This document shows positions 5,319 through 23,192 of a stretch of DNA of 32,000 nt, one piece after another. Source of the DNA: Pseudodesulfovibrio piezophilus C1TLV30 (GTDB lineage Bacteria; Desulfobacterota; Desulfovibrionia; Desulfovibrionales; Desulfovibrionaceae); the NCBI RefSeq assembly GCF_000341895.1, contig NC_020409.1, positions 3,182,411 through 3,214,410 of the forward strand, given 5' to 3'. A program made the position numbers and the translations under genes. The notes beneath the pieces were generated by a model that was not told where the DNA came from, did no database searches, and saw nothing but the letters and a program-made list of their open reading frames with translations. The number at the start of each line of letters is the position of its first letter. The stretch's first letter is position 1.

Positions 5319-5327
5319 GGAGGAGCA

Positions 5328-5789: not shown

Positions 5790-5803
5790 ACTTGATTTGA
5801 AAT

Positions 5804-5820
5804 TGAAAATGAGTTTCATT
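5804..5820 (+). promoter_or_regulatory. Fur-box-like nested palindrome overlapping the start codon of the Fur-family gene
   Basis: TGAAA-ATGAG-TTTCA (5804-5818) nested with AATGA-GTT-TCATT (5808-5820). The 19-mer 5805-5823 matches 13/19 of the classical GATAATGATAATCATTATC box by hand alignment. Confidence 0.3.
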
Positions 5821-7484: not shown

Positions 7485-7706
7485 ATGACTCTGAATGAAC
7501 TCAAGCCAGGCTCCCGTTGCACCATGACGGACCTGACCGCAGTCGGTGCTCTCGGGCAACGGCTCATGGATCTTGGATTTTATCCTGGGGCTGAAATTGA
7601 GGTGGTGCGCAATGCTCCACTGGTCGATCCAGTGGAATTGCACCTTGACGGATACCATGTTTCGATTCGCCACAATGAAGCCAAGCATATTGAGGTGGAG
7701 AGATAA
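7485..7706 (+). CDS. feoA: FeoA-family protein (copy 2)
   Basis: 73 aa: LNELKPGSRCTMTDL....LGQRLMDLGFYPGAEIEVVRNAPLVDPVELHLDGYHVSIRHNEAKHIEV. SD AAGGAGG lies upstream. The stop overlaps the feoB start by 1 nt. Confidence 0.85.
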   Translation: MTLNELKPGSRCTMTDLTAVGALGQRLMDLGFYPGAEIEVVRNAPLVDPVELHLDGYHVSIRHNEAKHIEVER

Positions 7707-10210
7707 TGGCTGCCAAAAATTTGCTTGTTGCCCTGGCTGGGCAGCCGAATTGTGGAAAATCCACAGTTTTCAATATGCTTACGGGGGCTCGGCAGCATGT
7801 TGCCAACTACCCCGGTGTCACTGTTGAAAAAAAATCAGGTTCGTTCAAAATGGGGACAACCCGCGTTGAACTGGTTGATCTCCCCGGAACGTACAGTCTG
7901 ACATCATATTCTCTGGAAGAGCGTGTCTCGCGTGATTTCCTGCTTGGGGACAACCCCGGCGTGGTTATCGATGTCGCAGATGCATCAAATCTCAAGCGAA
8001 ATCTCTACCTGACTCTGCAACTTCTGGAAATGGAGGTGCCGACACTCCTCAATCTGAACATGATGGATGTTGCTGAGCGGCGCAACCAGACCATTGATAT
8101 TGCTGGGTTGGAAAAAATCCTGGGTATTCCAGTTGTCCCGACCACAGCCAAGAAAGGTGAAGGGCGTGAAGCCCTGCAAGTCGCAGTGGAAAAGGCCCGA
8201 GAAAATCCCTCCGATGGGTTTTTCAAGATCGATTACAAAGGGCTTGAAGAGCACATCTCCGAGTTGGAAACACTGCTGGTGGAGGACCCGGTCCTCAGCG
8301 TGCAGTATCCGGTCCGCTGGTTTGCCATCAAGTTGTTGGAAGATGACGCCGAGGCTATTCAATTGCTTCGGCGAACACATCCTGATGCGGAGCAGGTTCT
8401 TATCAGGACGGCTCAGTGCCGTGAGCGCTTCGAAAAAGTATCCGGTAACAGTGCCGAACGCCACATAGCATTCACTCGGCACGGAATGTGCGCCAATATC
8501 GCGAAAAAAGTGGTGGTACTGCCTCAGAATCCCAAGAGAAGTTTGTCTGACCGGGCTGATAGATATATCTGCAATCGTATCCTTGGCCCCATCATTCTCA
8601 TGTGCATCCTGATGGTCTTGTATGAAGTCTCCATCGTTTTCGGAGGCTGGCTTGCCCAAAAAGTCTGGCCGCTTTGGGGAGGACTTGAGAATTTTGCAGC
8701 CAGTGTGCTGCCTGCCCCCGGTTTCATGGTCGATCCCCTCCTACGAGCCCTGGCGCAGTGGGTCGTTAAATCCACGACAGCCATTCTGAATTATCTGCCG
8801 ATCTTTTTTTTGCTTTTCAGTCTTATCGCCGCATTGGAAGATAGTGGATACATGCCACGAATGGCTTTTATTCTGGATCGCCTGTTTCGGCGTTTCGGAT
8901 TGCATGGACAATCCACATTGCCCATGATCCTTGGCGGTGTCTATGTGGGCGGTTGCGCTATTCCCGGTGTCATGGCGACCAAAGCGATCCCTGATGAACG
9001 GGCGCGGTTAGCGACCATTCTCATTGTCCCCATGATGAATTGTCTCGCGAAAGTCCCTCTTTATCTCATATTGATTGGGGCTTATTTTGCAGATGTGGGC
9101 GGGTTAGCCATGTTCTTTATCGCCACGGTGACACTGTTTATGGCACTTCCCGTCGCAAAACTCCTGTCATTGACTGTGCTCAAGAAGCGGGAGAGCGCCC
9201 CGTTCATCATGGAAATGCCTCCGTATCATGTGCCGACTCTCCAGGGCGTGTTGAGGCGGTCTTTGGAACGCATCTGGATGTTCATGAAAAAGATTGTGAC
9301 GGTGGTTTCGGCTGTTGCTGTAGTTGTTTTTGTGCTCATCAACTTTCCGGGTTTGTCGGCAGAGAGGCAAGCTCACTATGAGGAAGTTCGAGACAGTGCC
9401 ATTCAGGCTTTTGTGAAACAGGCGGACAAGACTGAATACAAGGATGTCATTACCACTGATGACGTTTTGCCGATTATTCTTTTCGGCGAGGCATTGAAGC
9501 ATTCGAAGATAGGGGTGACGGACAAAGAACAGTCCGCTGCCATCAATGCGGAATTTGAAGCGAAAAATCCCGTTTACTACGCTGTGGTCAAACGCAAGGG
9601 CAAGGACGGGAAAAAGCTCAATAAGGCGCTGAAAAAAGTGGTTCGAGCACGGAAGTCCGTGCGTCGTGAGATTCGGGCTGAGCGGTTTGAGTCAAGCTTC
9701 CTGGGAACCATGGGGCGTGCCTTGGAGCCGGTGACGCAATTTGCCGGATTCAACTGGCGTATCAATATCGCCTTGCTCTCCGCTTTTGCGGCTAAGGAAA
9801 ATAGCGCGGCAACCCTTGGTTCCATTTATGGTATCGATGGATCAGGGCAGTCTGTTCAGGAGACCATGAAAGCCGGGGAAGTCGGTTTTACCTCGCTTCA
9901 CGCCCTGGCGTTGATGCTGTTCATGGCCTTGTATCCCCCCTGCGTGCCGACATCCATCATGGTCAAGCATCAGTCGAATTCTACCGGGTGGATGTTGTTT
10001 TCCATCGGCTATCAGACATTACTCGGTTTGTTTGTGGCCAGTCTGGTTTTTACTGGCGGAAGCCTTCTTGGCCTGAGCGGATTCCAGGCCATGTGGGCTT
10101 TTTATGGCTTATGCGTCGCCACGACATTAGGCATGGCTTTGATTCCCACTCGCGAGGAAAAAGAGACTGAGATAATTACCCCGACATCTGTCAAAGAACA
10201 TTGCTCTTAA
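7706..10210 (+). CDS. feoB: Ferrous iron transporter FeoB
   Basis: 834 aa. N-terminal G-domain with G1 GQPNCGKSTVFN and G3 DLPGTYSL, followed by a polytopic membrane domain. It contains a long soluble Lys/Arg-rich insert (see findings). Confidence 0.95.
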   Translation: MAAKNLLVALAGQPNCGKSTVFNMLTGARQHVANYPGVTVEKKSGSFKMGTTRVELVDLPGTYSLTSYSLEERVSRDFLLGDNPGVVIDVADASNLKRNLYLTLQLLEMEVPTLLNLNMMDVAERRNQTIDIAGLEKILGIPVVPTTAKKGEGREALQVAVEKARENPSDGFFKIDYKGLEEHISELETLLVEDPVLSVQYPVRWFAIKLLEDDAEAIQLLRRTHPDAEQVLIRTAQCRERFEKVSGNSAERHIAFTRHGMCANIAKKVVVLPQNPKRSLSDRADRYICNRILGPIILMCILMVLYEVSIVFGGWLAQKVWPLWGGLENFAASVLPAPGFMVDPLLRALAQWVVKSTTAILNYLPIFFLLFSLIAALEDSGYMPRMAFILDRLFRRFGLHGQSTLPMILGGVYVGGCAIPGVMATKAIPDERARLATILIVPMMNCLAKVPLYLILIGAYFADVGGLAMFFIATVTLFMALPVAKLLSLTVLKKRESAPFIMEMPPYHVPTLQGVLRRSLERIWMFMKKIVTVVSAVAVVVFVLINFPGLSAERQAHYEEVRDSAIQAFVKQADKTEYKDVITTDDVLPIILFGEALKHSKIGVTDKEQSAAINAEFEAKNPVYYAVVKRKGKDGKKLNKALKKVVRARKSVRREIRAERFESSFLGTMGRALEPVTQFAGFNWRINIALLSAFAAKENSAATLGSIYGIDGSGQSVQETMKAGEVGFTSLHALALMLFMALYPPCVPTSIMVKHQSNSTGWMLFSIGYQTLLGLFVASLVFTGGSLLGLSGFQAMWAFYGLCVATTLGMALIPTREEKETEIITPTSVKEHCS

Positions 10211-10636: not shown

Positions 10637-11464
10637 ATGAAAAAGCGTTTGATTCCCTTTCTCACTGCCGTATGCGTCCTGACTGTGGTGGGGTCAGCCT
10701 TTGCCCACTTCATGGTGATGTACACCCCGGAAGTCGCTTTGCACAGCGGTTCGGATCTAGACATGCGTGTCTTGTTTACCCACCCTGCTGAGGCTGGGCA
10801 CATGATGGACATGGGCGGTATTGAGGAATTTTATGTACTCACCCAACGCGGTGATTCAAAGGTCAAAAAAACTGATTTGAAAGGGTATCTAAAAGATATC
10901 GAGTGGGCCAATCCGCATGCGAAGGCTCCTGCCTTTTCTGCCATGATTCCCAAAAAAGTCGTCCGTTCCATGGGCGATTATGTCTTTGTCATGAAGCCCG
11001 GACACTATTTCGAAAAGGAAGAAGGCGTCTACATGCAGCAGATCACCAAGCTGATCCTGAATGTCGGCGGCGTTCCCGGAAATTGGGCTGACCCTGTCGG
11101 CTTGCCGTGCGAAATCGTGCCTCTCATCAAGCCTTACGGTTTGTGGACAGGAAATGTTTTCAAGGCTCAGGTCTTGTCCGAGGGCAAACCTGTTGCTGGC
11201 GCGGAAGTGGAAGTCGAATTCATGAACCACATGCCGGATCTCAGCACCAACTCCATGCCTGCTGAAGGCACTGTTGAATACCCTCACGATGCTTTTGTCA
11301 CTCAGACAATCTATTCCGATGCCAATGGGTACATTGCCTTTGGCATTCCCAAAGCCGGTTGGTGGGGCTTTGCCGCACTCGGAGTCGGTCCTGAAAAAGA
11401 ATACAAAGGCAAGGAACTCGGTCAGGACGCAGTCATCTGGGTCAAAGCCGTGGATATGAAATAA
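10637..11464 (+). CDS. Periplasmic DUF4198-like (NikK/CbiK-type) metal-binding protein
   Basis: 275 aa. The signal peptide ends GSAFA|HFM, so the mature N-terminus is again His. An Ig/transthyretin-like segment reads KAQVLSEGKPVAGAEVEVEF. The family assignment is from memory of the DUF4198 layout and was not searched. Confidence 0.6.
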   Translation: MKKRLIPFLTAVCVLTVVGSAFAHFMVMYTPEVALHSGSDLDMRVLFTHPAEAGHMMDMGGIEEFYVLTQRGDSKVKKTDLKGYLKDIEWANPHAKAPAFSAMIPKKVVRSMGDYVFVMKPGHYFEKEEGVYMQQITKLILNVGGVPGNWADPVGLPCEIVPLIKPYGLWTGNVFKAQVLSEGKPVAGAEVEVEFMNHMPDLSTNSMPAEGTVEYPHDAFVTQTIYSDANGYIAFGIPKAGWWGFAALGVGPEKEYKGKELGQDAVIWVKAVDMK

Positions 11465-11505
11465 CGAATAAGCTCTCTCTGTCTCTCTAGCGAGCGCCTC
11501 CAGAA

Positions 11506-11541
11506 GGTGTGGCGGGTTTTACCATACCAGCCCGCCACACC
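11506..11541 (+). terminator. Strong hairpin after the DUF4198-like gene (possible terminator or processing site; no U-tail)
   Basis: GGTGTGGCGGG / CCCGCCACACC form a perfect 11-bp stem with a 14-nt loop. No T-run follows, so intrinsic termination is uncertain. Confidence 0.35.
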
Positions 11542-11558
11542 ACGACATTTCAAAGCAG

Positions 11559-12248
11559 GTGAACATGACGAACCTCCCTCAGATGCGAGCCATTGAACTT
11601 GAGGATATTTGCGAATTCCAGGTGCTGGATGCAGTCCAGATGACGGTACACCAATTCGCGGAATCCTTGAGCCATATCATTGATGCCAAGGATCACAGTA
11701 CTCACTCCCATTCCGAGGAGGTCGCCGTCATGTCCCAAACCATTGGCCAGCAAATGGGGCTGAGCGCAAAGCAGTCGGACATTCTTCACCTTGCAGGGCA
11801 TCTGCATGATATCGGGAAGGTCGGTATTCAGGATGCCATCCTGAAGAAACGTGGACCATTGACTCGAAAGGAATTCAATATCATCAAGAAACACCCGGTC
11901 ATAGGCGCACAAATCATGGCTCCAGTCGCTCCCTTTGCCGGAAAGAACGGCATTGTAAAAATGATTCTGCACCATCATGAACGGTTTGACGGGAATGGCT
12001 ATCCGGATGGACTTCGTGCGCGGAATATTCCTCTTGGCGCTCGTATTATCGCTGTGGCGGACAGTCTTTCAGCCATGTTGCAGGACCGTCCCTATCGACG
12101 GGCCATGTTTTATGAAGAAGCGCTCCAGGAAATCTACGATTGTTCCGGTTCTCAGTTTGATCCGGTGGTTGTCAATGCCCTGTTCAGTGTGAAGGGAATT
12201 ATCAAGACCTATTTGTGTTCATTGCATAAGAATAAGGATGTTGCATGA
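11559..12248 (+). CDS. Stand-alone HD-GYP domain protein (c-di-GMP phosphodiesterase family)
   Basis: 229 aa with HSEEVA, HLHDIGKVGI and HHHERFDGNGYPDGL (HD plus GYP motifs). No receiver or sensor domain. The listed start is GTG at 11559, and an in-frame ATG lies at 11565. Confidence 0.85.
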   Translation: MNMTNLPQMRAIELEDICEFQVLDAVQMTVHQFAESLSHIIDAKDHSTHSHSEEVAVMSQTIGQQMGLSAKQSDILHLAGHLHDIGKVGIQDAILKKRGPLTRKEFNIIKKHPVIGAQIMAPVAPFAGKNGIVKMILHHHERFDGNGYPDGLRARNIPLGARIIAVADSLSAMLQDRPYRRAMFYEEALQEIYDCSGSQFDPVVVNALFSVKGIIKTYLCSLHKNKDVA

Positions 12249-12913
12249 TCATGGGGAAGAAACACCCTTTGCCTCTTTGTGAGGTCATCGTCAAACCATC
12301 CGGTTCCGGGTTGGAAACCCGTCTTGTTCTTTTGGCGGCACTCCTGACAGTGATAGTGTGTGGGGGCATCATCATGGTTCGTCATGCCACGGCTACGGTC
12401 CAGGAAGCTCCCTCATGGCAGATGAATGCATTTACTGATCTTCGCTCTGAAGAGTTGGCAACATTCAACGCCTTGTATACAGCAGCTCCCGAAATTGAGG
12501 CATTTCATGAGGATGAAGACGGGCGTTGGCCTTCGGTCACTGAACTCAGAGCCGAGTTTGTCCCTCCTTTTGTGCAGGATGCGGCATGGCAACGAAATGG
12601 TGGGTTGGATTGGGCGCGAAGTCTCATCAGTACCAGTGACAAGCATATCGCTTGCTATCTCGGAAGTCCCATGGAGCAGGATAAATCCGGCTCTTTCCTG
12701 CTGATCATGTTGCATGGACATGTCAAAAAGGAAGGGAACGCAGGGGCATCCTCGCATGTGCCTTACGAGATCTGGCTTCACGCTTCACCCGTGGCCGAAT
12801 TCCCTGATTTGGTCACGGATCAGGCACTCATCAACGCGGGCTGGCGTGTGGTGGTGGCTCGAAAAGGTGAGGATGAAATGCGGCGGACCAAAGGTGAGGG
12901 GTATATCCAATGA
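12245..12913 (+). CDS. Uncharacterised single-pass membrane protein, translationally coupled between the HD-GYP gene and the ABC transporter
   Basis: 222 aa. One TM helix (LVLLAALLTVIVCGGIIMV) followed by a soluble domain of about 160 aa with no motif I recognise. ATGA overlaps occur at both ends (12245-12248 and 12910-12913). Confidence 0.55.
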   Translation: MIMGKKHPLPLCEVIVKPSGSGLETRLVLLAALLTVIVCGGIIMVRHATATVQEAPSWQMNAFTDLRSEELATFNALYTAAPEIEAFHEDEDGRWPSVTELRAEFVPPFVQDAAWQRNGGLDWARSLISTSDKHIACYLGSPMEQDKSGSFLLIMLHGHVKKEGNAGASSHVPYEIWLHASPVAEFPDLVTDQALINAGWRVVVARKGEDEMRRTKGEGYIQ

Positions 12914-13839
12914 TCAAAAAAATGTTTTTCCCTCTGGTATACATGAGCTTTATGTTTTTGTTCATTTCGGCGGGTGTTGTTTCCGCAGGGACAACGCTTC
13001 CTCGTATCGGGGTCACTTTGCATCCGTATTACAGTTTTGTCGCGGCGATTGTCGGTAACACGGCTGAAGTGGTCCCTCTTATTGGCGAGGGGTTCAACCC
13101 GCATAATTATCGGCCGCAACCTGAAGATATCAAGCGCTCCATGACCCTGGATGCCTTGGTCGTCAATGGGATAGGTCACGATGAATTCGCTTTTGAAATA
13201 GTGGAGGCGGCGGATATGAAAGGCACGTTGCCCATCATTTTTGCCAACAAGGATGTCTCCCTGATTCCCGTGGGAGGTCATCTTGATGGTAAAAAAATCG
13301 TGAATCCGCACACTTTTGTCTCGGTGACTGCTTCAGTCCGCCAGATATATACCATCGCTCAGGGACTGAGTGAGTTGTTTCCCGAGCATGCCGATCTCTA
13401 TCGCAGGAATGCCAGACGTTATGCAGCTCGACTCAGGCGTATGAAGGCGGAATACATGGAGCGTCTCGCCATGTTGCCGAGCATGGATTTTCGATGTGCG
13501 ACCATTCACGGTGGGTATGACTATCTTTTTCAGGATTTCGGACTTCAGGTCACGGCAGTGATTGAGCCCGGACATGGTCTCAAACCTACGGCAAGCCAAC
13601 TTGCCAGGACCATTGACGAAATAAAGCGGCTTGGGGTGGACGTTATTTTCACTGAAATGGCTTTCCCTGATAAATACGTGGATACCATTCACGAAGAAAC
13701 AGGGATTCGCATCAGACATCTCTCTCATTTGACAAGCGGCGAATATAGCAAAGACGGCTTTGAAAAGGGGCTGCGGGCCAATCTGGAAGCTCTGACCAGC
13801 GCCCTGATCGAAGCTCAAAGTTCCAAGCAAGGAGGTTGA
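12910..13839 (+). CDS. Metal ABC transporter substrate-binding protein (ZnuA/TroA cluster A-I)
   Basis: 309 aa with a signal peptide. The three canonical His-containing blocks are present: TLHPYYSF, NPHNYRP and NPHTFVS. Metal specificity (Zn, Mn or Fe) cannot be determined from sequence. Confidence 0.85.
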   Translation: MIKKMFFPLVYMSFMFLFISAGVVSAGTTLPRIGVTLHPYYSFVAAIVGNTAEVVPLIGEGFNPHNYRPQPEDIKRSMTLDALVVNGIGHDEFAFEIVEAADMKGTLPIIFANKDVSLIPVGGHLDGKKIVNPHTFVSVTASVRQIYTIAQGLSELFPEHADLYRRNARRYAARLRRMKAEYMERLAMLPSMDFRCATIHGGYDYLFQDFGLQVTAVIEPGHGLKPTASQLARTIDEIKRLGVDVIFTEMAFPDKYVDTIHEETGIRIRHLSHLTSGEYSKDGFEKGLRANLEALTSALIEAQSSKQGG

Positions 13840-13840
13840 G

Positions 13841-14569
13841 ATGACAGTCACCCATATGACGGGCGGTCCCTCTGTGCACTTCGAGAATGTCGGTCTTTCA
13901 CTTGGCGGAAACACCATCCTCGACGGGGTGAATTTTACGGTGGCAGCCGGAACCATTCATTGTGTTATCGGTCCCAATGGAGGGGGGAAGACTTCACTCA
14001 TTCGGTCCCTGCTCGGTCAAATGCCCCATACTGGGGATATTCGTATCTGCTGGGGGAATGATTGGACCATGGGGTATGTGCCTCAGGCCCTTGAGTTCGA
14101 TGATTCACTCCCAATGACCGTTGCCGATTTCATGGCGATGATCGGGCAACGTCATCGTCCTGCTTTCATGGGCTTGAAACGGGATAGCCGGACTTTGGTT
14201 GAGAATGTTCTGGCTCGAGTTGACATGCTCGACAAAAGAGATCGACCTTTTGGCTCCCTGTCCGGCGGTGAACGGCAACGCGTGCTGCTGGCACAGGCCC
14301 TGATGCCTTCCCCGAAACTGCTCGTGCTGGATGAACCCGCATCCGGGTTGGACAAAGCAGGTGCTGCCGTCATGCATTCCATTGTTCAGGAATTGTCGGA
14401 CAACGGAACGACTGTCCTTATCATTCATCATGATCTTGGTATAGTTCGGGAAATAGCCCATGGGGTGACCTGCATAAATCAACACATGCTTTTCTCCGGC
14501 GATCCGCAGCAGGAATTGACCTCGGAGCGCATTTTTACCATCTTCTCCTCTTCTGCAAAGGCGGCTTGA
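13841..14569 (+). CDS. Metal ABC transporter ATP-binding protein
   Basis: Walker A GPNGGGKTS, signature LSGGERQR, Walker B LLVLDEP, H-loop IIHHD. Confidence 0.9.
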   Translation: MTVTHMTGGPSVHFENVGLSLGGNTILDGVNFTVAAGTIHCVIGPNGGGKTSLIRSLLGQMPHTGDIRICWGNDWTMGYVPQALEFDDSLPMTVADFMAMIGQRHRPAFMGLKRDSRTLVENVLARVDMLDKRDRPFGSLSGGERQRVLLAQALMPSPKLLVLDEPASGLDKAGAAVMHSIVQELSDNGTTVLIIHHDLGIVREIAHGVTCINQHMLFSGDPQQELTSERIFTIFSSSAKAA

Positions 14570-15480
14570 TTTTCATGCATTCAGTGTACGATTTTATTCG
14601 GTCTCCACTTATGGAGTGGGGCAGGGCTGGGGTATTGCCGGAATTTTTCCAATACGCTTTTGTGGTCAATGCGCTTTTGTGTGCTTTGATTGCCGGGCCG
14701 TTGCTGGGTGGGATAGGAACCATGGTCGTTTCCAAACGATTGGCTTTTTTTTCCCAGGCAGTGGGGCAGGCTGCCTTGACCGGTGTCGCCCTTGGCGTGC
14801 TTCTCGGGGAGCCTGTCACAGCTCCGTATGCCTCTCTTTTCGGTTTTTGCATTCTTTTTGCCTTGACCATGAATTATACCAGGAACCGCACGCGTATGAA
14901 GCAGGATACTGTTATCGGTGTCTTTCTCTCTATTTCGCTGGCAGTGGGTGCCTGCGTTTTGCTTTATGTCACAGCTCGGGTCAACATGCATGTCCTCGAC
15001 AATATCCTGTTCGGTTCCATTCTGACGGTCAATGACACTGATATGAATGTCCTTCTGGGTATCGGGGCCATTTGTATGGCGGTGGGGATTCCCACCTATA
15101 ATAATATGCTGCTGTCCAGTTTCAATTCCAGTCTGGCTCAGGTTCGCGGGGTCAATGCTACCCTGCACGATTATATCTTCGTGCTCATGATTACTGTGAT
15201 TACCGTAGCGTGCCTCAAGATCGTCGGCGCGGTACTGGTGGAAGCGCTTCTGATCATTCCTGCGGCTTCGGCACGGAATATCAGCCGTTCCATCAAGGGT
15301 TTTTTCGGATACAGTGTCGTTTTTGCCACCGTGAGTTGCCTGCTTGGCATCATTGTCCCCATGCAGTTTGAAATACCGGTGCCGTCCGGTGGGGCAATTA
15401 TTCTGGTCGCGTCATTCCTTTTTGCGCTTACTGCCGGAATTCGGGCTGTTTCCGGTTCCTACAAGGAGGCCTCGGCATGA
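14566..15480 (+). CDS. Metal ABC transporter permease (ZnuB/TroC type)
   Basis: 304-aa polytopic hydrophobic protein. The start overlaps the ATPase stop and the stop overlaps the next start. Confidence 0.9.
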   Translation: MIFMHSVYDFIRSPLMEWGRAGVLPEFFQYAFVVNALLCALIAGPLLGGIGTMVVSKRLAFFSQAVGQAALTGVALGVLLGEPVTAPYASLFGFCILFALTMNYTRNRTRMKQDTVIGVFLSISLAVGACVLLYVTARVNMHVLDNILFGSILTVNDTDMNVLLGIGAICMAVGIPTYNNMLLSSFNSSLAQVRGVNATLHDYIFVLMITVITVACLKIVGAVLVEALLIIPAASARNISRSIKGFFGYSVVFATVSCLLGIIVPMQFEIPVPSGGAIILVASFLFALTAGIRAVSGSYKEASA

Positions 15481-16412
15481 TCAAAAAACTGACATTGGCA
15501 CTCTTTGTTTCACTTCTTGTCGTTGTCGTCTCCAAGGCAGCAGTCCCTGATCTTCCGGCTCAGAGGAGCGAAACCATAGTCCTTGCCTCTCTTGATGTTG
15601 TGCAAGCACTTGGAGAGGCGCTGACGGAGCAGACATCCATCAGGGTTCTCAATGCCATTCCGCAGGGGTATTCAATGCAGGGGCAAAGGGCATACCTGAA
15701 GAAGCATCAGGACATCTTTTCCCAATTGGCAGAGCATGCAGCAGGGGTGCTTTCCGTGACCTCTGCCTGGAGCGATGATCCTCTTTATCAGTGGGCTCGA
15801 CGAGCCAATATCCGAATCGTGAATATTGATGTGACCAAGCCTCTTGATGGATATGGTGCGGGCGTGCCTCTGCTCCAGGTGGAGGGAGCGTATTCGCCGT
15901 ATGTCTGGCGCAGTCCCGCTAACCTGACTCGTATGGCCGTGATTGCGGCTGATGATCTATCCCGTCTGGTTCCCCATGAAGCGCAGACCATAGAGGAGAA
16001 TCTCAAGAAGTTGCAATCCGCATTGTTTCAATTGCGCAGTCGTTATGAAAACGCCTTCACCCAAATGGAGTTGGTTGATCTTGCTGCATTGACGGGTGAC
16101 TACACCTATCTCATGGATGAATTCGGCCTGGGCATTCGCTTTTATACCCTCAAACCCGAAGGACAGTGGACCGCAGACGAAGAACAAGCTCTTTCTCAAC
16201 ATCTGAGTCAATCAGGGATTGTCGGGGTCATTTGTCCATGGGAGCCGGAAGAAAAGGGACGTCAGGTTATCAGGAAAGGCGGCGCTGTCCCCATCGTGTT
16301 GAAAAAGTATGTGTCCTCACTGGGTGTGGACCCGGTTACATCTTTGGTTCGTTGGTATGACGATAATTTATCCCAGTTGCTTGGGGCGCTGAAAACTACA
16401 ACAGGAGGCTGA
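15477..16412 (+). CDS. Second ZnuA/TroA-fold binding-protein paralogue lacking the canonical His ligands
   Basis: 311 aa with a signal or anchor helix. It has the same overall block order as the first binding protein. The His blocks are replaced: LASLDVV for LHPYYSF, IPQGYSM for NPHNYRP, and SPYVWRSP for NPHTFVS. Confidence 0.65.
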   Translation: MIKKLTLALFVSLLVVVVSKAAVPDLPAQRSETIVLASLDVVQALGEALTEQTSIRVLNAIPQGYSMQGQRAYLKKHQDIFSQLAEHAAGVLSVTSAWSDDPLYQWARRANIRIVNIDVTKPLDGYGAGVPLLQVEGAYSPYVWRSPANLTRMAVIAADDLSRLVPHEAQTIEENLKKLQSALFQLRSRYENAFTQMELVDLAALTGDYTYLMDEFGLGIRFYTLKPEGQWTADEEQALSQHLSQSGIVGVICPWEPEEKGRQVIRKGGAVPIVLKKYVSSLGVDPVTSLVRWYDDNLSQLLGALKTTTGG

Positions 16413-16585: not shown

Positions 16586-16748
16586 GTTGAAAAGCGTGAT
16601 TTGAAAGGGCTTGGCTCTTTGTGACGGGCGCGGTATGGTCAATCACTGCTCTCTCATGTTCCCCTGTTGATTGATCCTTTTCGGGTTCTTTTGGGAGAAT
16701 TTGCATGAGAGCAGGCTCTCATGTAGTAATCCGCAACAGGAGGGAAGA

Positions 16749-17057
16749 ATGAACTTTGCTACAATTGCCGCGTTAAGAAAATATTTGTCGATTAAACACA
16801 GTTTGCCGGGCCGGATAAGGATCAAGTTCTCGCTTGCCATCATGTCTGATCCCGAGGCGCTCAAGCTTGCCCAGTCTCCGCCGGAGATGCCCGAAGCTGT
16901 TACGGATACGCAATTGAATTTGTTTTCTCGTACTTTATTGATTGAATATGACGCAGAGCGAGTGCCACCTGCCTTGCTTGAAGAACTGATCACAACAGAT
17001 GATGATGTGAGGGCAGCAGAAGTTGTCGAAGAATTACACCAAGCTCTCTTTGTCTAG
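16749..17057 (+). CDS. Small soluble HMA-like (Cys-less, GRIR-motif) protein
   Basis: 102 aa from ATG 16749, with SD CAGGAGGG upstream. The track start at 16671 is a TTG lying in the leader. The motif SLPGRIRIKF followed by ...TLLIEYD resembles the N-terminus of the ATPase at 18365 (SIPGRIRFES). There is no CxxC. Confidence 0.55.
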   Translation: MNFATIAALRKYLSIKHSLPGRIRIKFSLAIMSDPEALKLAQSPPEMPEAVTDTQLNLFSRTLLIEYDAERVPPALLEELITTDDDVRAAEVVEELHQALFV

Positions 17058-17083: not shown

Positions 17084-17109
17084 AAGCGCGGCGGATGCCG
17101 CGCTTTTTT
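17084..17109 (+). terminator. Rho-independent terminator
   Basis: AAGCGCGGC-ggat-GCCGCGCTT stem-loop followed by a T6 run (17104-17109). Confidence 0.8.
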
Positions 17110-17500
17110 CATACCTTTCCGGCTTGTTTCAAGTTGACTCTGATAATCGTTTTCAATAATGTCCTCTCGACCCGTATGGAATCGGAAGTGGCACTGTGTT
17201 CTTTTGTAAAGCGAGCCAAATGTCCGATTGGTGTCTTCACACAAAGAACAAAAAAGGTGTGCCGATGTCCCGAAAGTCAGAGAATACATTTGAAACCCTC
17301 CCCAGTCCTGTTGATCATCTTGTCAACGGTGTCCAAATCAAGCGAAACCCCAGAGACCGCAAGAAGTTCTTTCTGCGCTCCGGGTGTGTCCTTGTTTCCC
17401 TCTGCGGTTTGCTCGCGTGCAATTCGTTGGGCTTGAGTCTTGGGCGTGTTGTCTGCCACGGCCTCTTGATTGCTTCCCTGGGTGCCCCCTCTCGAAAGGT

Positions 17501-17537
17501 GAATTGATTTTATAACGGTTACCGTTAAAAATCATTC
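17501..17537. promoter_or_regulatory. 37-bp AT-rich palindrome (candidate Fur-family operator) ahead of the ATPase operon
   Basis: GAATTGATTTTA-TAACGGT-T-ACCGTTA-AAAATCATTC. The core 17513-17527 is a perfect 7-1-7 palindrome. The arms resemble Fur half-sites (AATCATT). It shares the 8-mer ATGAGAAT (reverse strand, 17532-17539) with the repeat at 10592. Confidence 0.45.
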
Positions 17538-17608
17538 TCATGGTTGTACCATCTTTCTACACTATGGTAGCAGTATTCATCCTGCAACGTGAAGGAGTCT
17601 TGAAGAAA

Positions 17609-17803
17609 ATGAATGAGTTGACGGAAAAATTACTATTGGTTGCTGCGGGGGCTGCAGTTGGGGCGCTCGGTTATATGGCCGTGAAACATCCTGATGAACT
17701 CAAGGAGTTCATGGGAGATGCGGCTGAGCTTGGGCAGAAATTTTTTGAGAAAACCATGGCTGACGTGGCCGATAAAATGGGTCATTCGAAGGACGCCGCT
17801 TAA
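17609..17803 (+). CDS. Small glycine-zipper membrane protein (FezA/FezC-like or YtxH-like candidate)
   Basis: 64 aa from ATG 17609, with GGAG at 17594-17597. The track start at 17540 adds an unlikely 23 aa. N-terminal helix LLLVAAGAAVGALGYMAV, then an amphipathic acidic helix (PDELKEFMGDAAELGQKFFEKTMADVADKM). Confidence 0.6.
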   Translation: MNELTEKLLLVAAGAAVGALGYMAVKHPDELKEFMGDAAELGQKFFEKTMADVADKMGHSKDAA

Positions 17804-17814
17804 AGGAAGAGACT

Positions 17815-18276
17815 ATGGCTATCAACAGAATCGCATATTTGATTGCCGGAGCTGCGCTTGGAGCTGCCGGTATGGCATTGGCCAAGGAAGGCAAAGGGGA
17901 AAACCTGCTGCAATCTCTGGTACAAGGGGGACATGGACTGACTGACAAGTTGCTTGGGACAGTGGAGACCATCAAGGAAGACGTGGAAGATTATCTGGCC
18001 GAGGCCAAGTTCGCGCATGAGCAGAAGGCGAAAGAGGCTGCGAAGCCCGCTGCAGCCGCTGCTGCCACGGCAACTGTAGCCACAACAGCTGCCAAGGCTG
18101 CCACAAAGAAGCCCACCGCAAAGAAATCGGCAGCGAAAAAAACTCCAGCCAAGAAAGCAGCACCCAAAAAGTCTGCGGCCAAGAAACCCGCTGCCAGGAA
18201 GCCTGCGGTGAAAAAGACGACGGCAAAAAAAAATAGTCCGAAGAAGACGGCGACCAAAGCTCCTACCGGCGAATAG
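17815..18276 (+). CDS. Glycine-zipper membrane protein with a histone-H1-like Lys/Ala/Pro-rich C-terminal tail
   Basis: 153 aa with SD AAGGAAGAG upstream. N-terminal helix IAYLIAGAALGAAGMALA, an amphipathic segment, then from about aa 71 a tail rich in KKP/AKK repeats (TKKPTAKKSAAKKTPAKKAAPKKSAAKKPAARKPAVKKTTAKKNSPKK). Confidence 0.7.
   Translation: MAINRIAYLIAGAALGAAGMALAKEGKGENLLQSLVQGGHGLTDKLLGTVETIKEDVEDYLAEAKFAHEQKAKEAAKPAAAAAATATVATTAAKAATKKPTAKKSAAKKTPAKKAAPKKSAAKKPAARKPAVKKTTAKKNSPKKTATKAPTGE
18025..18273 (+). repeat. Low-complexity coding repeat: (A/T/S/P)-A-K-K units forming the poly-basic tail
   Basis: Reiterated AAGAA(A/G)...GC(N) codon units. The antisense ORF 17991..18347 is its mirror artefact. 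Confidence 0.8.
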
Positions 18277-18364: not shown

Positions 18365-20503
18365 ATGAATATTGTCCGTAGCATTCCCGGTCGCATCCGT
18401 TTTGAGTCGGAATCCGAGCAGGCAGTCCTGTATATACAGGAGTATCTTCAGAAAGTCGTAGGTGATGATCTTGGCGAGATAGAGTTCAGCTACAGTCAAC
18501 GGTCAGGTCGTGGACTGGCGCTGTTTTCCCCTTGCCCGAATCTGACTGCGAGGGTGCTGGAAGCCATGGGGGCCGCTATGGCCGAGCCTCCTGTTCCGGA
18601 ACTTCCTACCTGTCGAACCGCCGCTCCAGGCGATGAGATGGCATGTACATTGCCTGCGCTTGGATCAGCCTTATATGAAGCTGAAACTATTGAGAATCCT
18701 TTTTGGATTGTTGCCAAGAAAGTGCTCAATTTTTACATGACCCGGCTGTTCATGCCTGCGACGATTCGTCCTTACTGGACAGTCTTCAGCGTTTCACCTT
18801 TGATCTTCGAGGGAGTCCGATCTTTATTCCAGCGTCAATTGAACGTTGCCGTGCTTGATGCCGCAGCCATCGGGTCTGCCCTGGCCATGCGGGACTTCAA
18901 TACTGCGGGAACCATTCATTTGTTGCTCGACATCAGTGAAACCCTGGAAGACTGGACTCGAGAGAAGTCTCGAAGTGACCTCGCTTCCTTATTTCGGGGT
19001 GATGGCAAACCCGTCTGGGTTTTACGCAAGGGTGAAGAGGTCCAGACTCCGCAGGAGAACCTTGTTTCTGGAGATTTGGTTATTGTCCGTTCCGGGGCGC
19101 GTATTCCTGTGGATGGAGTTGTTGCCGATGGTACGGCCATGGTCAACCAGGCTTCCATGACGGGAGAGCCGTTGTCTGTGAAGCGTGGACCGGGCAAGGA
19201 AGTGTATGCCGGGACAGTCGTTGAGGAAGGCAAGATCATTATTCTCTCCGAAGGAGTTGGTGATGAAACCCGATTCGCCAAAATTGCTCAGGTTATTGCT
19301 GATTCCGAAAACATGAAGGCGGACATTCACGGCCAAGCTGTGAAGTTGGCCGACAAGATTGTTCCATATTCCTTTCTGCTTTCCGGGGTGATTTTCGCAG
19401 TGACCAGGAACTGGATGCAGGCCGCAGCCGTTCTTATGGCGGATTATTCCTGTGCCATAAAACTCGCGACACCTCTTGCCGTGCGTTCGGCCATGTTGGA
19501 GTCTGCCCACTGCGGAGCGTTGATCAAAGGGGGAAAATTTATTGAGCAATTGGCTCAGGTCGATGCCATTGTGCTGGACAAGACCGGCACCCTGACCAAG
19601 GCCTCTCCTGAGGTCGTGGATATCTGCCCGGTCAATGGCTACACCCGTGAATTTATCCTGCGCAATGCCGCCTGCATGGAGGAACATTTCCCCCATCCTG
19701 TGGCAGACGCGGTTGTCAGGAAAGCCGATGAAGAAGGTTTCAATCATGATGAAAAGCATGCAGAAGTTGAATATATTCTTGCCCATGGCATAGCGACGAC
19801 GCTGGATGGTCAACGCATGATTCTCGGCAGCAGGCACTTTGTCCACGAGGATGAGGGGATTGATTTGGACGAAGCTGAGGCTCAGATCTCTCGGTGTTCC
19901 GAGAGCGGATTGTCCACACTGTATATGGCTGTCGGTGGGAAGCTCGCCGGTGTCATTGCTCTGCAAGACCCGCTCAGGGAGTCGGCCTATCGGTTCATCA
20001 GGCGGCTGGAGAACATGGGCATGAAGCGGATCATCATGCTGACCGGTGATGGAGAAGCAACGGCCAGGAATGTTGCCGCTGAATTGGATATTCAGGAATA
20101 CTATGCGCAGGTTTTGCCGGACGAAAAGACTGATCTGGTGGATTCCCTGCGAGAGGAAGGGTATACTGTGGCCATGGTGGGTGACGGTATCAATGATTCT
20201 GCCGCACTAAGTCGAGCTGATGTGGGAGTCTCCATGAAGCATGGAGCCGATATTGCCCAGGAGGCGTGTGATGTGATGCTGACAAGCGAACGCCTGGACA
20301 GTCTCATGGATGCCATGTCCCTTTCGAAGATGGTCATGCGTCGGATTAAGCGGAATTATCGATTTATTGTCGGGAGCAATACTCTTTTCATCGGTCTCGG
20401 TGTGGCAGGGATCATTTCTCCGGCCATGCTTGCCTTTTTGCATAATTCAGGAACGGTTTTGACCTGCGCTCACAGTATGCGCCCCATGCTCCCTGAACAA
20501 TAA
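18365..20503 (+). CDS. P1B-type heavy-metal ATPase with an S-C-A membrane motif (P1B-6 / FezB-like) and an N-terminal Cys-less HMA-like domain
   Basis: 712 aa. TGE (SMTGEPLSV), DKTGT (19577-19591), MLTGDGEATA and VGDGINDSAAL. The membrane helix before the P-domain reads ADYSCAIKLATPLAV, with S-C-A at 19448-19456 in place of CPC. Only two hydrophobic helices precede the actuator domain. The N-terminus SIPGRIRFESE...GLALFSP is HMA-like without CxxC. Confidence 0.9.
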   Translation: MNIVRSIPGRIRFESESEQAVLYIQEYLQKVVGDDLGEIEFSYSQRSGRGLALFSPCPNLTARVLEAMGAAMAEPPVPELPTCRTAAPGDEMACTLPALGSALYEAETIENPFWIVAKKVLNFYMTRLFMPATIRPYWTVFSVSPLIFEGVRSLFQRQLNVAVLDAAAIGSALAMRDFNTAGTIHLLLDISETLEDWTREKSRSDLASLFRGDGKPVWVLRKGEEVQTPQENLVSGDLVIVRSGARIPVDGVVADGTAMVNQASMTGEPLSVKRGPGKEVYAGTVVEEGKIIILSEGVGDETRFAKIAQVIADSENMKADIHGQAVKLADKIVPYSFLLSGVIFAVTRNWMQAAAVLMADYSCAIKLATPLAVRSAMLESAHCGALIKGGKFIEQLAQVDAIVLDKTGTLTKASPEVVDICPVNGYTREFILRNAACMEEHFPHPVADAVVRKADEEGFNHDEKHAEVEYILAHGIATTLDGQRMILGSRHFVHEDEGIDLDEAEAQISRCSESGLSTLYMAVGGKLAGVIALQDPLRESAYRFIRRLENMGMKRIIMLTGDGEATARNVAAELDIQEYYAQVLPDEKTDLVDSLREEGYTVAMVGDGINDSAALSRADVGVSMKHGADIAQEACDVMLTSERLDSLMDAMSLSKMVMRRIKRNYRFIVGSNTLFIGLGVAGIISPAMLAFLHNSGTVLTCAHSMRPMLPEQ

Positions 20504-20891: not shown

Positions 20892-21503
20892 ATGAAGCAA
20901 TTTCTTCCAAAGAATCCGTTTGCGGCTGCTGGTGTGGGAGCACTGGTTGGCGCAGGAATAGCCGGGTACAAAATGTGGTCATTGTATAAGGGCGGTGAAG
21001 TTTCCAAGCAGGAAGCAGTCGCTGGTGTCGTCAAGCAGAGTCTCTTGTTTGGCGGCGTTGCAGCAGCGACGACCGTGGCTGGAGGGCAGGGCGGCGGCGG
21101 TATAGGTATTGCTGCCATGTCATTAGTCGGCATGGGGGGCCGAGGAGGAGGTGGCGGTGGAATGTTGCCAGGACTTTTCTCCGCTTCCCTTGGTGGAGGT
21201 CGAGGAGGCGGTGGAGGCATGGGCGGCTCGGGCGGCGGTGGTCGCGGTGGTATGGGGGGGAATGGAGGATCCGGTGCTGGCGGCGGAGGAAGTCGTGGGA
21301 ATCAAAGCACAGGAATTCTTGATTCAATATCCAACGCCGTGAGTGGTCTTTTGGTTTCCGATGAGCCGAGCGAACAGGCGCTTGAAGAGTCGGTGGATCG
21401 AGCCTTGGAAAAAGGAACCGTTTCGGCTACCGGTCTTGACGAAGAAGGGCTTGAAAGCGATGAGGATCGTGATGAGGAATCTTCAGAGGAAGAGAAAGCT
21501 TAG
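20892..21503 (+). CDS. Glycine-zipper membrane protein with a Gly/Arg-rich disordered region and an acidic C-terminal tail
   Basis: 203 aa. N-terminal helix PFAAAGVGALVGAGIAGY and a second hydrophobic stretch SLLFGGVAAATTVAG. Residues about 64-136 are roughly 70% Gly with RGG units (GGRGGGGGGM, GGGRGGGGGMGGSGGGGRGGMGGNGGSGAGGGGSRG). Residues 157-203 are Asp/Glu/Ser-rich (DEEGLESDEDRDEESSEEEKA). Confidence 0.65.
   Translation: MKQFLPKNPFAAAGVGALVGAGIAGYKMWSLYKGGEVSKQEAVAGVVKQSLLFGGVAAATTVAGGQGGGGIGIAAMSLVGMGGRGGGGGGMLPGLFSASLGGGRGGGGGMGGSGGGGRGGMGGNGGSGAGGGGSRGNQSTGILDSISNAVSGLLVSDEPSEQALEESVDRALEKGTVSATGLDEEGLESDEDRDEESSEEEKA
21081..21299 (+). repeat. Low-complexity (GGN)n coding repeat
   Basis: GGC/GGT/GGA/GGG runs. 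They produce the mirror-image poly-Pro ORF on the minus strand (20768..21220). Confidence 0.8.
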
Positions 21504-21532: not shown

Positions 21533-22708
21533 ATGAATGAGCGTACTGTCACTGTCGAGGGTGATAACGATCTTGTCGCGGCACGGAAAAGAGCAGCTCT
21601 TTCGGTACTGCTCAACATGATACTTGCTCTGGTAAAAGGTGGTGCCGGGATTCTTTCCGGCAGTGCCGCCCTTATAGGTGATGCGGTCCACTCCGCGGCC
21701 GATGTTTTTGCATCCGGGGCTGCACTTGTCGGTCTGTGGATTGCCGGTAAAAAGCACCCGTCATTTCCTTTCGGATTATACAAGGCCGAAAATATCGCGA
21801 CGTTGGTCATTGCTTTGGCCGTGATTATGGTTGCGTACGAGATTGGCCGGGATGCGCTCATTGGTGGTGAAACCATACCGGACACTGCTCTTGCCTTGCC
21901 GGTTGCCATTGGCTCGTTGATTGTTGCCGTTGTCTTTGGGCTTTTTCAGCTTCGATGCGGGAAAAAACTTGGGTCCCCGGCCTTGATCGCCGATGCGCGG
22001 GACTATCTGGTGGATGGTGCATCCACGGGAGTGGTGATCATTGGTTTGATCGGAGCCAGTTTTGGTTTTGCTTTGGATCGATGGGCTGCCGGTGCGGTTT
22101 CACTTTTTGTGCTTTGGGCCGGTTTCGAGCTTTTGGTTGATGCGGTGCGAGATTTACTTGATGCCGCCATGCCTCGGGAGTTGGTGCACGATCTCAGTTC
22201 GCTTGTGGAAAAACAACCTTTGGTCTCACGAGTGCTCGGCTGTGTCGGGCGGCAGGCCGGTGGTCGTTATATCGCCAATCTTGATATCCTTCTGCGCACC
22301 AATGACCATCTGGTCGCTGACAGGGTGGCAGATCGTCTGGAAGTGCTGGTGAAGAAAGAGTTTCCGCGAATTGTCATGGTCCATGTGAGGACACACTTCG
22401 GACACAGTGAGTCTCATCGACGGATCACGCCTGTCATTGATCATGGTGGAGCCATGGCCGAAGGACTGGCTTCTGCCCCTTGGTTCATGGTGGAGGATTT
22501 GGATGGACAGACCAAAGCAGTTACCGAGTGCGCATTTGTCAGGAATCCTCACAGGGATGCGCCTAAACGTCGTGGACTGATGGTCGGGCAGATGCTTATG
22601 GAGCTTAAACCTGATCAGGTCATCAGGCCTGATGGACATGCCGGAACAGCTCTTGCCCTGTTGGAAGAGGCCGGAGTGGATATTCTCCGTATAGGTGAGG
22701 AAAAGTAA
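21533..22708 (+). CDS. Cation diffusion facilitator (CDF) transporter fused to a C-terminal NifX/NifB-like (FeMo-cofactor-binding family) domain
   Basis: 391 aa. CDF TM2 motif SAALIGDAVHSAAD and TM5 motif LIADARDYLVD. The cytoplasmic CDF C-domain covers LLDAAMP...IVMVHV. From about H295 (nt 22415) there is an extra module of about 95 aa (ITPVIDHGG...APWFMVEDLDGQ...FVRNPH...LKPDQVI...ALLEEAGVDILR) whose pattern resembles the dinitrogenase Fe-Mo cofactor biosynthesis (NifX/NafY/NifB-C) fold. Confidence 0.8.
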   Translation: MNERTVTVEGDNDLVAARKRAALSVLLNMILALVKGGAGILSGSAALIGDAVHSAADVFASGAALVGLWIAGKKHPSFPFGLYKAENIATLVIALAVIMVAYEIGRDALIGGETIPDTALALPVAIGSLIVAVVFGLFQLRCGKKLGSPALIADARDYLVDGASTGVVIIGLIGASFGFALDRWAAGAVSLFVLWAGFELLVDAVRDLLDAAMPRELVHDLSSLVEKQPLVSRVLGCVGRQAGGRYIANLDILLRTNDHLVADRVADRLEVLVKKEFPRIVMVHVRTHFGHSESHRRITPVIDHGGAMAEGLASAPWFMVEDLDGQTKAVTECAFVRNPHRDAPKRRGLMVGQMLMELKPDQVIRPDGHAGTALALLEEAGVDILRIGEEK

Positions 22709-22742
22709 GACGCCTTCAATAATAAAAAGCGCAGGCGTCTTA
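22706..22742. terminator. Hairpin between convergent genes (weak candidate bidirectional terminator)
   Basis: TAAGACGCC ... GGCGTCTTA form a 9-bp stem with a 19-nt A-rich loop. It starts at the CDF stop codon. Confidence 0.3.
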
Positions 22743-22760: not shown

Positions 22761-23192
22761 CTACTTGGCGAGCGTGCGACGGTTCTGATAGATGTGCATT
22801 CCGAGCAGGCTGAGGAATGCGCTGCCCGCCACAACATGCCAGCGTTCGGAATAGTAGACGATTCCGATGGCTGCAATCAAGGATGCCGCTAACCCTCGCT
22901 TGACGTATCTGCGCGCCTTGCGGCCATTGAGTGTCTTCTGGGCACTGGCCATATTGGCCTTGACCTTGTTCATGTCGATGCCAAGGCCTTCGGCGATCTT
23001 GGTCAGAATATTCTCGGCAGTGATTTTGGTCTTGTCGAAAAGAATGAGAATGCTTCCCACACGTTTGTTGACCTGTACCTGAATCACCCCTTTGACTTCC
23101 AGCAGGGAATCTCGGACCTTGTAACCGAAATCGGCAACTTTGAGGGCCTCGTTTCTGAACCGGATACGTCCTTCTTCTGCGACTGCGTTCAT
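22761..23192 (-). CDS. Cys-less HMA-like (GRIR-motif) domain protein with an Arg-rich linker and two C-terminal TM helices
   Basis: 143 aa from ATG 23192, with SD AAGGAGAGAGAC upstream. The track start at 23225 is a GTG. Sequence reads EEGRIRFRNEALK...VKGVIQVQVNKRVGSILILFD, then RKARRYVKRG, then LAASLIAAIGIVYY and VVAGSAFLSLLGMHIY. Confidence 0.6.
   Translation of the reverse strand: MNAVAEEGRIRFRNEALKVADFGYKVRDSLLEVKGVIQVQVNKRVGSILILFDKTKITAENILTKIAEGLGIDMNKVKANMASAQKTLNGRKARRYVKRGLAASLIAAIGIVYYSERWHVVAGSAFLSLLGMHIYQNRRTLAK

Follow-up and report, generated by a model that had tools for sequence, protein, structure and literature searches.

The gene analysed here lies at positions 21533-22708 on the forward strand of a 32,000-nucleotide stretch of Pseudodesulfovibrio piezophilus C1TLV30 DNA (contig NC_020409.1; the whole stretch is called the window below). 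It encodes a cation diffusion facilitator (CDF) transporter which continues, in the same reading frame, into an additional C-terminal domain, here called the tail. Based on the comparisons given below, the tail is placed in a divergent branch of the PF02579 fold family, to which NifX, NafY, the C-terminus of NifB and the orange protein (ORP) belong. The locus name BN4_20123 was assigned by locus numbering, and the product is 100% identical to sequence P0001, 'cation diffusion facilitator family transporter [Pseudodesulfovibrio piezophilus]'. Together with the gene directly 5' of it, BN4_20122, BN4_20123 is located physically inside a recognised ferrosome (fez) cluster. The parts of the gene are the following:

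21533-22708, + strand: whole gene, CDF fused to a PF02579 (NifX-fold) domain; intact open reading frame (ORF) of 391 amino acids
21599-22159, + strand: CDF transmembrane (TM) domain, residues 23-209, six helices; PF01545, TIGR01297, AlphaFold2 (AF2) model and Foldseek
21677-21703, + strand: TM2 motif GDAVHSAAD; H53 and D57 align with the YiiP site-A residues D45 and D49, and D50 is invariant
21992-22015, + strand: TM5 motif DARDYLVD; D157 and D161 align with YiiP H153 and D157, and D154 is invariant
22172-22387, + strand: CDF cytoplasmic C-terminal domain, residues 214-285, alpha/beta; PF16916 and AF2
22412-22690, + strand: extra C-terminal domain, residues ~294-386, predicted divergent PF02579 / NifX-ORP fold; orthologous tails, model and Foldseek
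22463-22465, + strand: codon 311 (Gly), at the position of NifX H35 and NafY H121; column counts and alignment
22565-22579, + strand: basic loop P-K-R-R-G, residues 344-348 (family consensus E-[RK]-K-[KR]-G); column counts

The CDF part is complete. Residues 23-209 match PF01545 Cation_efflux with E=7e-39 (134.1 bits, cut-off 26.6), and the CDF profile TIGR01297 is matched with 170.7 bits (cut-off 82.35, E=4e-50). The full-length AF2 model was built on 120 homologues and has a predicted local distance difference test (pLDDT) score of 88.2. It shows six long helices (residues 3-42, 45-72, 79-110, 118-146, 149-176 and 181-209), an alpha/beta C-terminal domain (helix 215-226, strands 231-242 and 245-254, helix 259-276 and strand 280-289) and then a further domain. 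Residues 214-285 match PF16916 ZT_dimer under the cut-off (E=5.5e-4; 20.3 against 26.7 bits), and a precomputed PF16916 match is present in most of the homologues. In Foldseek, YiiP and ZnT structures were aligned to the full-length model over about 280 columns, the best being YiiP 8f6e (E=3e-11, TM-score 0.77 on the target). Every testable feature of CDF family membership is found, in agreement with the complete CDF described in an earlier note on this DNA made by a model from the letters alone. The strings quoted there are all located at the positions which it gave: the TM2 and TM5 motifs as listed above, APWFMVEDLDG at 22475-22507, VRNPH at 22538-22552 and LLEEAGVDILR at 22658-22690. Its count of about 95 extra residues from nt 22415 is also correct; this is codon 295, just past the last strand of the CDF C-domain. 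The fusion is not split by a frameshift: the ORF is uninterrupted, and the 120 best homologues are near full-length (367-441 amino acids, each covering at least 92% of the query).

Only CDF structures were found when the full-length model was the Foldseek query, and the tail was therefore modelled and searched alone. Its predicted order of elements is beta-beta-beta-alpha-beta-alpha-beta, with pLDDT values of 85-96 in the full-length model and 90.4 when modelled separately. The best match is the D. gigas ORP (2wfb, E=1.9e-5, TM-score 0.68). The top seven rows comprise six entries (2wfb, 1o13, 1t3v, 1rdu, 1eo1 and 2re2, the last with chains A and B); TM1816, TM1290, MTH1175 and Ta1041m are among the matches, and NifX (9ian_F) is found at rank 10. 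The sequence comparison points the same way: when a hidden Markov model of the tail was compared with the PDB, the four best matches were MTH1175 (1eo1, E=8.5e-4), TM1816 (1o13 and 1t3v) and TM1290 (1rdu), all of them stand-alone PF02579-type proteins. A set of 46 diverse orthologous tails was scanned singly against PF02579 (Nitro_FeMo-Co), and 36 of them matched at E<=0.01 (best 9.6e-10), with nothing else of note. The P. piezophilus tail alone reaches E=0.033 and 14.9 bits, below the cut-off of 26.3, and gave no match in an NCBIfam scan. A precomputed PF02579 match is present in about 12 of the 120 full-length relatives. The tail-only query of a large protein index returned nothing, a result set by the word-index limit and no evidence of absence. 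The matches of the orthologous tails, of the profile and of the fold support homology of the tail to the PF02579 family, so that membership of this divergent tail, read from sequence and model, is confirmed at family level. The NifX/NifB-C assignment proposed in the earlier note, for which it had suggested a scan against Nitro_FeMo-Co, stands on these three lines, and the score of the P. piezophilus tail itself is sub-threshold.

The tail shares with the known PF02579 proteins (NifX, NafY, the NifB C-terminus, the Desulfovibrio ORP, MTH1175, TM1290 and TM1816) the predicted fold, at TM-scores of 0.6-0.7, and the layout of the motifs ([H]F..AP.F, NP, the G-loop and G.A..L.eAGV). There are also differences: these proteins are free-standing or fused to a radical-SAM domain, whereas the tail is fused to a membrane transporter, and the canonical members have a Gly-rich loop where the tail has a Lys/Arg-rich one (it is aligned to 'SGGAG' of MTH1175). 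The tail belongs to a narrow, separate subfamily of PF02579. Its pattern of invariant and near-invariant residues indicates that it is under selection. Among the 120 relatives P300, G348, D361 and L376 are invariant, and P316, W317, F318, E321, N338, W354, T372, A373 and others are nearly so; P300, F318, N338, P339, G348 and D361 are invariant even between subgroups which are about 30% identical. The features kept are the AP[WY]F strand, E321, N338-P339, D361, the G-T-A...L-L-x-E-A-G-V helix-strand and the basic loop.

Concerning ligands, NifB-co is ligated in NifX by H35 within a positively charged pocket (PMC13128457); in NafY H121 is the key FeMo-co ligand, and NifY and NafX have been described without this His (PMC13128457, PMC8496260, PMC6428710). 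Residues 20-50 of the solved NifX (9ian) read LKVAFASSDRELVDQHFGSSRSFAIYGVNPE, which identifies H35 as the His in the HFG motif of the family; in NafY (1p90) the core aligns with 'DGHFG'. At the corresponding column 311, 101 of the 120 relatives have His, seven Gly, five Arg and four Asn. BN4_20123 has Gly311, in the context 'EGLASAPWF', and the four closest sequences, including the P. piezophilus copy itself, read GLASA (P0002-P0004 have Gly too); the His has thus been lost in this clade. According to the column counts of the 120 relatives, the tail contains no conserved Cys. NifX-style cluster ligation is doubtful for BN4_20123, because Gly311 replaces the ligating His and a conserved Cys is missing, and the binding of an Fe-S or FeMo-type cluster which the earlier note had suggested is weak for the P. 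piezophilus copy.

Looking at the distribution of the fusion, a relative is encoded in 216 species-representative genomes (one genome per species), most of them Desulfobulbia, Thermodesulfobacteriota and other metagenome-assembled genomes of Desulfobacterota. The tail profile was compared with 1.84 billion cluster representatives and matched only 218 clusters at E<=0.001. Among the 150 of these matches that were listed, 60 have recognisable CDF sequence, and most of the remaining listed ones are gene fragments which start at the last CDF strand ('...VLIHYEP...') and continue with the tail domain. The tail subfamily is thus narrow and almost exclusively CDF-fused. A second fusion subgroup is more distant, at about 25-34% identity; the canonical HFGEAPYF motif is found in it, and the methanogen Methanoplanus/Methanochimaera is one of its members. 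In all the sources which name these proteins they are called plain CDF transporters, and no description of the fusion was found in the literature on CDF proteins with NifX, Nitro_FeMo-Co, PF02579 or the orange protein, in agreement with the earlier note, which knew of no characterisation of it. The architecture is visible in domain databases, yet unnamed and unstudied.

The residues of transport site A were taken from the alignment to E. coli FieF/YiiP (2qfi). The site is HD-DD in BN4_20123 and DD-HD in YiiP. The quartet H53, D57, D157 and D161 is invariant or nearly so among the homologues, and two extra invariant Asp residues, D50 and D154, stand one turn ahead of the site-A residues; in the second fusion subgroup position 157 is mostly His or Gln. 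In CDFs, a carboxylate-rich site whose TM5 half is DxxxD points to Fe(II) or Mn(II) as the substrate in preference to Zn(II). FieF/YiiP (E. coli 2qfi/3h90; Shewanella 8f6e) is the best match among solved structures both by sequence (E=2e-14) and by fold, and has the same six-helix TM domain and alpha/beta C-domain, with site A at equal TM2/TM5 positions; it differs in the order of the site-A residues, in the two extra Asp residues and in the roughly 95 additional residues of BN4_20123, which form a separate domain. The named NCBIfam profiles rank as follows: MamB (119 bits), MamM (100), MntE (84.4), Cdf31 (78) and FieF (70.6). All of these memberships for which an equivalog cut-off was compared are rejected: MamB and MamM (cut-off 350), MntE (500) and FieF (NF050169, 70.6 against 420 bits; NF007064, 61.4 against 447). 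MamB and MamM are the closest named profiles, and they share with BN4_20123 that the CDF is encoded within the gene cluster of a membrane-bounded iron-mineral organelle; BN4_20123 differs in being far under their cut-off and outside a magnetosome gene island. No magnetosome-family (mam) match was obtained when the larger ORFs of the window were compared with Pfam, a comparison in which mad genes were not specifically tested.

The features of the fez cluster around BN4_20123 are listed below; the Fez group numbers are those in the ferrosome supplement, which lists these proteins.

16671-17057, + strand: R-rich HMA_2 protein BN4_20117, annotated as 102 amino acids, Fez group 3-1; SIKHSLPGRIRIKFS at 16788-16832, PF19991 with 2.2e-8
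17141-17155, + strand: Fur-box-like site with two mismatches, 5' of the fez GxxxG genes; a second one at 17526-17540
17609-17803, + strand: small GxxxG protein BN4_20119, Fez group 2-11; LVAAGAAVGALGYM at 17636-17677
17815-18276, + strand: GxxxG protein BN4_20120, 153 amino acids, Lys-rich tail, Fez group 2-10; YLIAGAALGAAGMA at 17836-17877
18365-20503, + strand: FezB homologue BN4_20121, P1B-6 ('SCA') P-type ATPase; motifs, TIGR01525 with 1.6e-147
20892-21503, + strand: Gly-rich protein BN4_20122 (named by numbering), 203 amino acids; GxxxG-type hydrophobic N-terminus AAAGVGALVGAGIAG; ends 29 nt before the CDF start
22710-22732, no strand: hairpin between the convergent CDF and HMA_2 genes, likely terminator; consensus scan, pattern match only
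22761-23192, - strand: R-rich HMA_2 membrane protein BN4_20124, 143 amino acids, FezC-like, Fez group 3-2; MNAVAEEGRIRFRNE at 23148-23192, PF19991 with 1e-10

FezB is the P1B-6 ATPase of ferrosomes and is marked by D[Y/F]SCA, HNxxT and an R-rich N-terminus (bioRxiv 10.1101/2020.01.10.902569). The ATPase at 18365-20503 contains DYSCAIK (19442-19462), HNSGT (20441-20455) and the N-terminal RSIPGRIRFES, and the FezB table of Grant & Komeili gives identical motif strings for BN4_20121 of P. piezophilus C1TLV30 (bioRxiv 10.1101/2020.01.10.902569). The SCA ATPase is the published FezB homologue, an identity which the earlier note had not recognised. BN4_20123 lies between this listed FezB and the listed R-rich protein BN4_20124, with which it is convergent, and is therefore inside the fez cluster. 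The fusion gene appears not to have been reported from a ferrosome cluster before. The main text of the ferrosome preprint does not contain 'cation', 'CDF' or 'Nif' (bioRxiv 10.1101/2020.01.10.902569).

The Gly-rich protein BN4_20122 contains 58 Gly, a low-complexity middle and an acidic tail with 21 Asp/Glu within the last 60 residues, and has no Pfam or NCBIfam match. We take its composition to resemble that of Mms6-type biomineralisation proteins. In the close relatives at loci L004, L005 and L088 its counterpart (205-242 amino acids) is always found directly 5' of the CDF. The Lys-rich C-terminal half of the GxxxG protein BN4_20120 matches histone-H1-like (HC2) models (E=1e-6), which is unusual for a putative organelle membrane protein. 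An ORF at 17095-17436 (+ strand, 113 amino acids) is probably not a gene: it has no Pfam/NCBIfam match and no counterpart in L004/L005, and it was treated as non-coding. It falls in the part of the fez cluster between genes where the Fur-box-like sites lie.

Concerning the gene neighbourhoods of the close relatives (72-79% identity), L004 and L005 keep the series of an HMA_2 gene, a 63-amino-acid gene (at the position of BN4_20119), a 152-164-amino-acid gene, the ATPase, the Gly-rich gene, the CDF and the reverse HMA_2 gene, whereas the outer flanks of this conserved block differ. L088, a short contig, keeps the Gly-rich, CDF and reverse HMA_2 genes, which is the part that the contig covers. 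In this lineage the arrangement agrees with a fez cluster in that the CDF gene stands between FezB and an R-rich protein and is preceded by a GxxxG-type protein; it differs in the CDF itself, as the conserved groups of Fez proteins that have been described do not include one.

Outside this clade the most frequent partner is FeoB, which is encoded directly 5' of the fusion gene in 29 of the 64 loci whose upstream sequence extends over 3.5 kb or more (about 45%) and on the opposite strand in 27 of these 29. The gap between feoB and the fusion gene is 0.75-1.4 kb in 26 of the 29 loci, and at L044 (7053-9797) it holds FeoA and a FeoB-associated protein. This divergent feoAB/CDF-fusion pairing resembles a ferrous-iron importer and an exporter with a common intergenic region. 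In Desulfobaculum-type relatives an importer made of ABC and ABC-3 proteins is encoded directly 3' of the fusion gene. Also, CbiA/ParA-Fer4 ATPases, a stand-alone PF02579 protein and a radical-SAM protein are encoded within about 5 kb of the fusion in the methanogen locus L086 (9398-12500) and, together with DUF5320, in L087 (8497-13242), and CbiA/ParA, PF02579 and Fer4 genes stand beside it in L040 (2934-4604). These neighbours are what we take to be the gene set of ORP-complex clusters. Their presence near the distant fusions is a hint that fused and free PF02579 proteins are functionally connected.

Between fezB and the Gly-rich gene is a gap of 388 nt, in which there are non-coding blocks conserved with L004 and L005 (20720-20830): TAATATACTTTAT...TTGAAC and TGGTT(C/T)TCGTTCTCA, the latter with a TTCTC direct repeat. 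The blocks may serve the Gly-rich/CDF pair as an internal promoter or operator distinct from the promoter of the fez genes. An inverted repeat, GATAAC-N10-ATTATC, just 5' of the Gly-rich gene was rejected as an operator; it is not conserved in L004 or L005. The GC content is flat (0.52-0.56) from fezB through the CDF, and a recent horizontal insertion of the Gly-rich/CDF pair therefore has no support.

With even confidence, we propose that BN4_20123 is an Fe(II)-exporting CDF with a fused cytosolic regulatory or docking domain of NifX fold, which was recruited into the ferrosome cluster in Pseudodesulfovibrio. The protein would be a dimer-type CDF divalent-cation/proton antiporter whose C-domain is permanently extended by the PF02579 domain. 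Its substrate is most likely Fe(II), because of the carboxylate-rich site (H53, D57, D157, D161, D50 and D154) and the ferrous-iron gene neighbours, with Mn(II) as the alternative, and it would move Fe(II) out of the cytosol. In the Pseudodesulfovibrio lineage its place of action is probably the ferrosome membrane, where its partners would be FezB, the GxxxG proteins and the HMA_2 proteins, by analogy with MamB/MamM in magnetosomes. The tail is unlikely to be a cluster carrier of the NifX type, because the P. piezophilus copy is without the ligating His; it may instead be a cytosolic regulatory/docking module, analogous to the fused metal-binding domains of P1B ATPases, which would sense a small anionic or metal ligand, or bind partner proteins, and so tune the CDF C-terminal domain.

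Several observations weigh against this proposal. The linkage of the fusion gene to fez genes is confined to the Pseudodesulfovibrio clade, and the gene is not a conserved Fez component. In the survey, which started from the loci of fusion genes and not from all fez clusters, a FezB-type ATPase was found within 10 kb in none of the 80 genome-scan loci, and no FezB-like gene is present within 8-10 kb of the fusion gene in L001-L003. The possibility raised in the earlier note that the fusion tracks SCA-type (P1B-6, FezB) ATPases holds for the Pseudodesulfovibrio clade (L004, L005 and, in part, L088) and is rejected as a general rule by these loci. In Desulfocurvus vexinensis the locus number of the R-rich protein is consecutive with that of FezB, which leaves no CDF between the two, and neither BN4_20122 nor BN4_20123 is present among the published Fez table entries examined, which cover a part of the tables and leave their absence unproven. 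The 388-nt gap with its conserved blocks suggests regulation of the Gly-rich/CDF pair apart from fezB. Fur boxes are not enriched 5' of the fusion gene in 81 other loci (mean best score 9.36, against 8.90 for shuffled sequence). The regulatory role suggested for the tail is an analogy, not a result, and the substrate metal, the direction of transport, the membrane location and the ligand of BN4_20123 are points which we infer from indirect evidence.

The metal, the membrane and the role of the tail are separate questions, and the other explanations partly overlap with one another. Most family members are not near fez genes, the divergent feoAB/CDF pairing fits an import/export pair and the uniform GC content gives no sign of a recently acquired module, all of which suits an Fe(II) overflow valve which, comparable to FieF/FeoE, would have a housekeeping role in the cytoplasmic membrane and none in an organelle, with an accidental fez position and a structural or dimer-stabilising tail. 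We consider this somewhat unlikely: the Gly-rich, CDF and reverse HMA_2 genes occur together in all four clade members examined despite their differing outer flanks, a GxxxG N-terminus, which is typical of Fez proteins, is present in the Gly-rich partner, and the conservation of the tail (D361, N338 and the basic loop) exceeds the needs of a passive appendage. Concerning the metal, DxxxD in TM5 is typical of Mn-CDFs and counts against the Fe(II) exporter. It occurs in BN4_20123 without His; MntE is the third-best NCBIfam profile (84 bits), the importer directly 3' in the Desulfobaculum-type relatives is of the Mnt/Sit/Znu type, and a Znu-type ABC system is encoded upstream in the window. Nevertheless, the MamB and MamM profiles outscore MntE, TM2 has HxxxD where Mn-CDFs have N/DxxxD, feoAB is the commonest neighbour and the P. 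piezophilus gene stands within the fez cluster, near Fur and FeoB. An Mn exporter of the MntE or plant MTP8 type in a general metal homeostasis neighbourhood, with the tail as an Mn-responsive regulator, is thus unlikely.

It also seems improbable that the tail is a true metallocluster-binding module, through which the CDF would be coupled to ORP-type assembly, supplying or removing metal or acting as a cluster donor or sensor. The case is better for the majority of the family, which keeps the His, than for the P. piezophilus copy, where Gly occupies the position of the ligating His and no Cys of the tail is conserved. The D. gigas ORP, the best fold match, binds a Mo-Cu-S cluster; the HFG His is kept in most relatives, and the second subgroup has the canonical motif in full. 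The full ORP-type gene set near L086 and L087 and the partial set at L040 belong on the same side, as do a CDF, a PF02579, a 4Fe-4S and a P-loop NTPase gene with close locus numbers in ANME-2a (PMC12622379) and the basic loop, which is consistent with an anionic ligand and recalls the positively charged pocket of NifX (PMC13128457). ORP-type neighbours, however, are found in only 3 to 5 of 87 loci and not in the window, and no nif genes are nearby.

For the proposed ferrosome role, the nearest precedent among proteins of iron organelles is FmpB (DMR_41100), a magnetosome protein of D. magneticus RS-1 which carries a NifX/NifB domain, a motif absent from the other magnetosome proteins (PMC4287615). 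The two are likened by domain type only: in both, a NifX/NifB-type domain is found on a protein of a Desulfovibrio relative which is, or for BN4_20123 may be, part of an iron-biomineralising organelle. The fusion partners of the domain in FmpB are magnetochrome and PDZ domains instead of a CDF (PMC4287615). The fezB/CDF/fezC-like arrangement parallels magnetosome biogenesis, where CDFs are essential, and the MamB-like CDF and the Gly-rich, acidic-tailed GxxxG protein would be two candidate ferrosome components of one lineage that are not listed in the available part of the Fez tables. CDF transporters are understood as a transmembrane domain with a metal-sensing C-terminal domain. A conserved third domain with the NifX/ORP fold would be an uncharacterised regulatory layer on them. 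PF02579 proteins are widespread in anaerobes, their function being largely unknown beyond nitrogenase maturation and the orange protein, and the fusion offers a testable clue.

A more far-reaching idea, which we regard as quite doubtful, is that Pseudodesulfovibrio ferrosomes are loaded by FezB together with a MamB-like CDF, the NifX-fold tail of which is a new kind of gate on the cytosolic side, responding to an iron species (Fe(II), an Fe-S fragment or an iron-phosphate complex) or docking a partner. If true, ferrosomes and Desulfovibrio magnetosomes (MamB and FmpB) would have in common a 'CDF plus NifX-fold' principle by which iron enters a mineral compartment enclosed by a membrane, and the fusion would be a Rosetta stone for the orphan PF02579 proteins of anaerobes, giving them a role in metal hand-off with membrane transporters.

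Other genes of the window are those of a regulator of the Fur family (5740-6267), of FeoB (7706-10210) and of the Znu-type ABC system. Between feoB and the fez cluster (10637-16412, + strand) are DUF4198, HD-domain, DUF6162, ZnuA, ABC ATPase and ABC-3 permease genes and a second, divergent ZnuA-like gene. Matches to a Fur-box consensus, which serve as a lead only, number nine in the window against 2.25 expected; the best, with one mismatch, is at 5804-5818, ahead of the Fur domain of ORF 5740-6267. The Fur gene is preceded by an AAA (MoxR-like) ATPase, a DUF2201 metallopeptidase/VWA protein and a 153-amino-acid ORF (window 2646-5789; also L004 32-2797), a module which is thus conserved between the two. 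With RND efflux genes and a two-component system also present downstream, the 32-kb window as a whole is an island of metal homeostasis.

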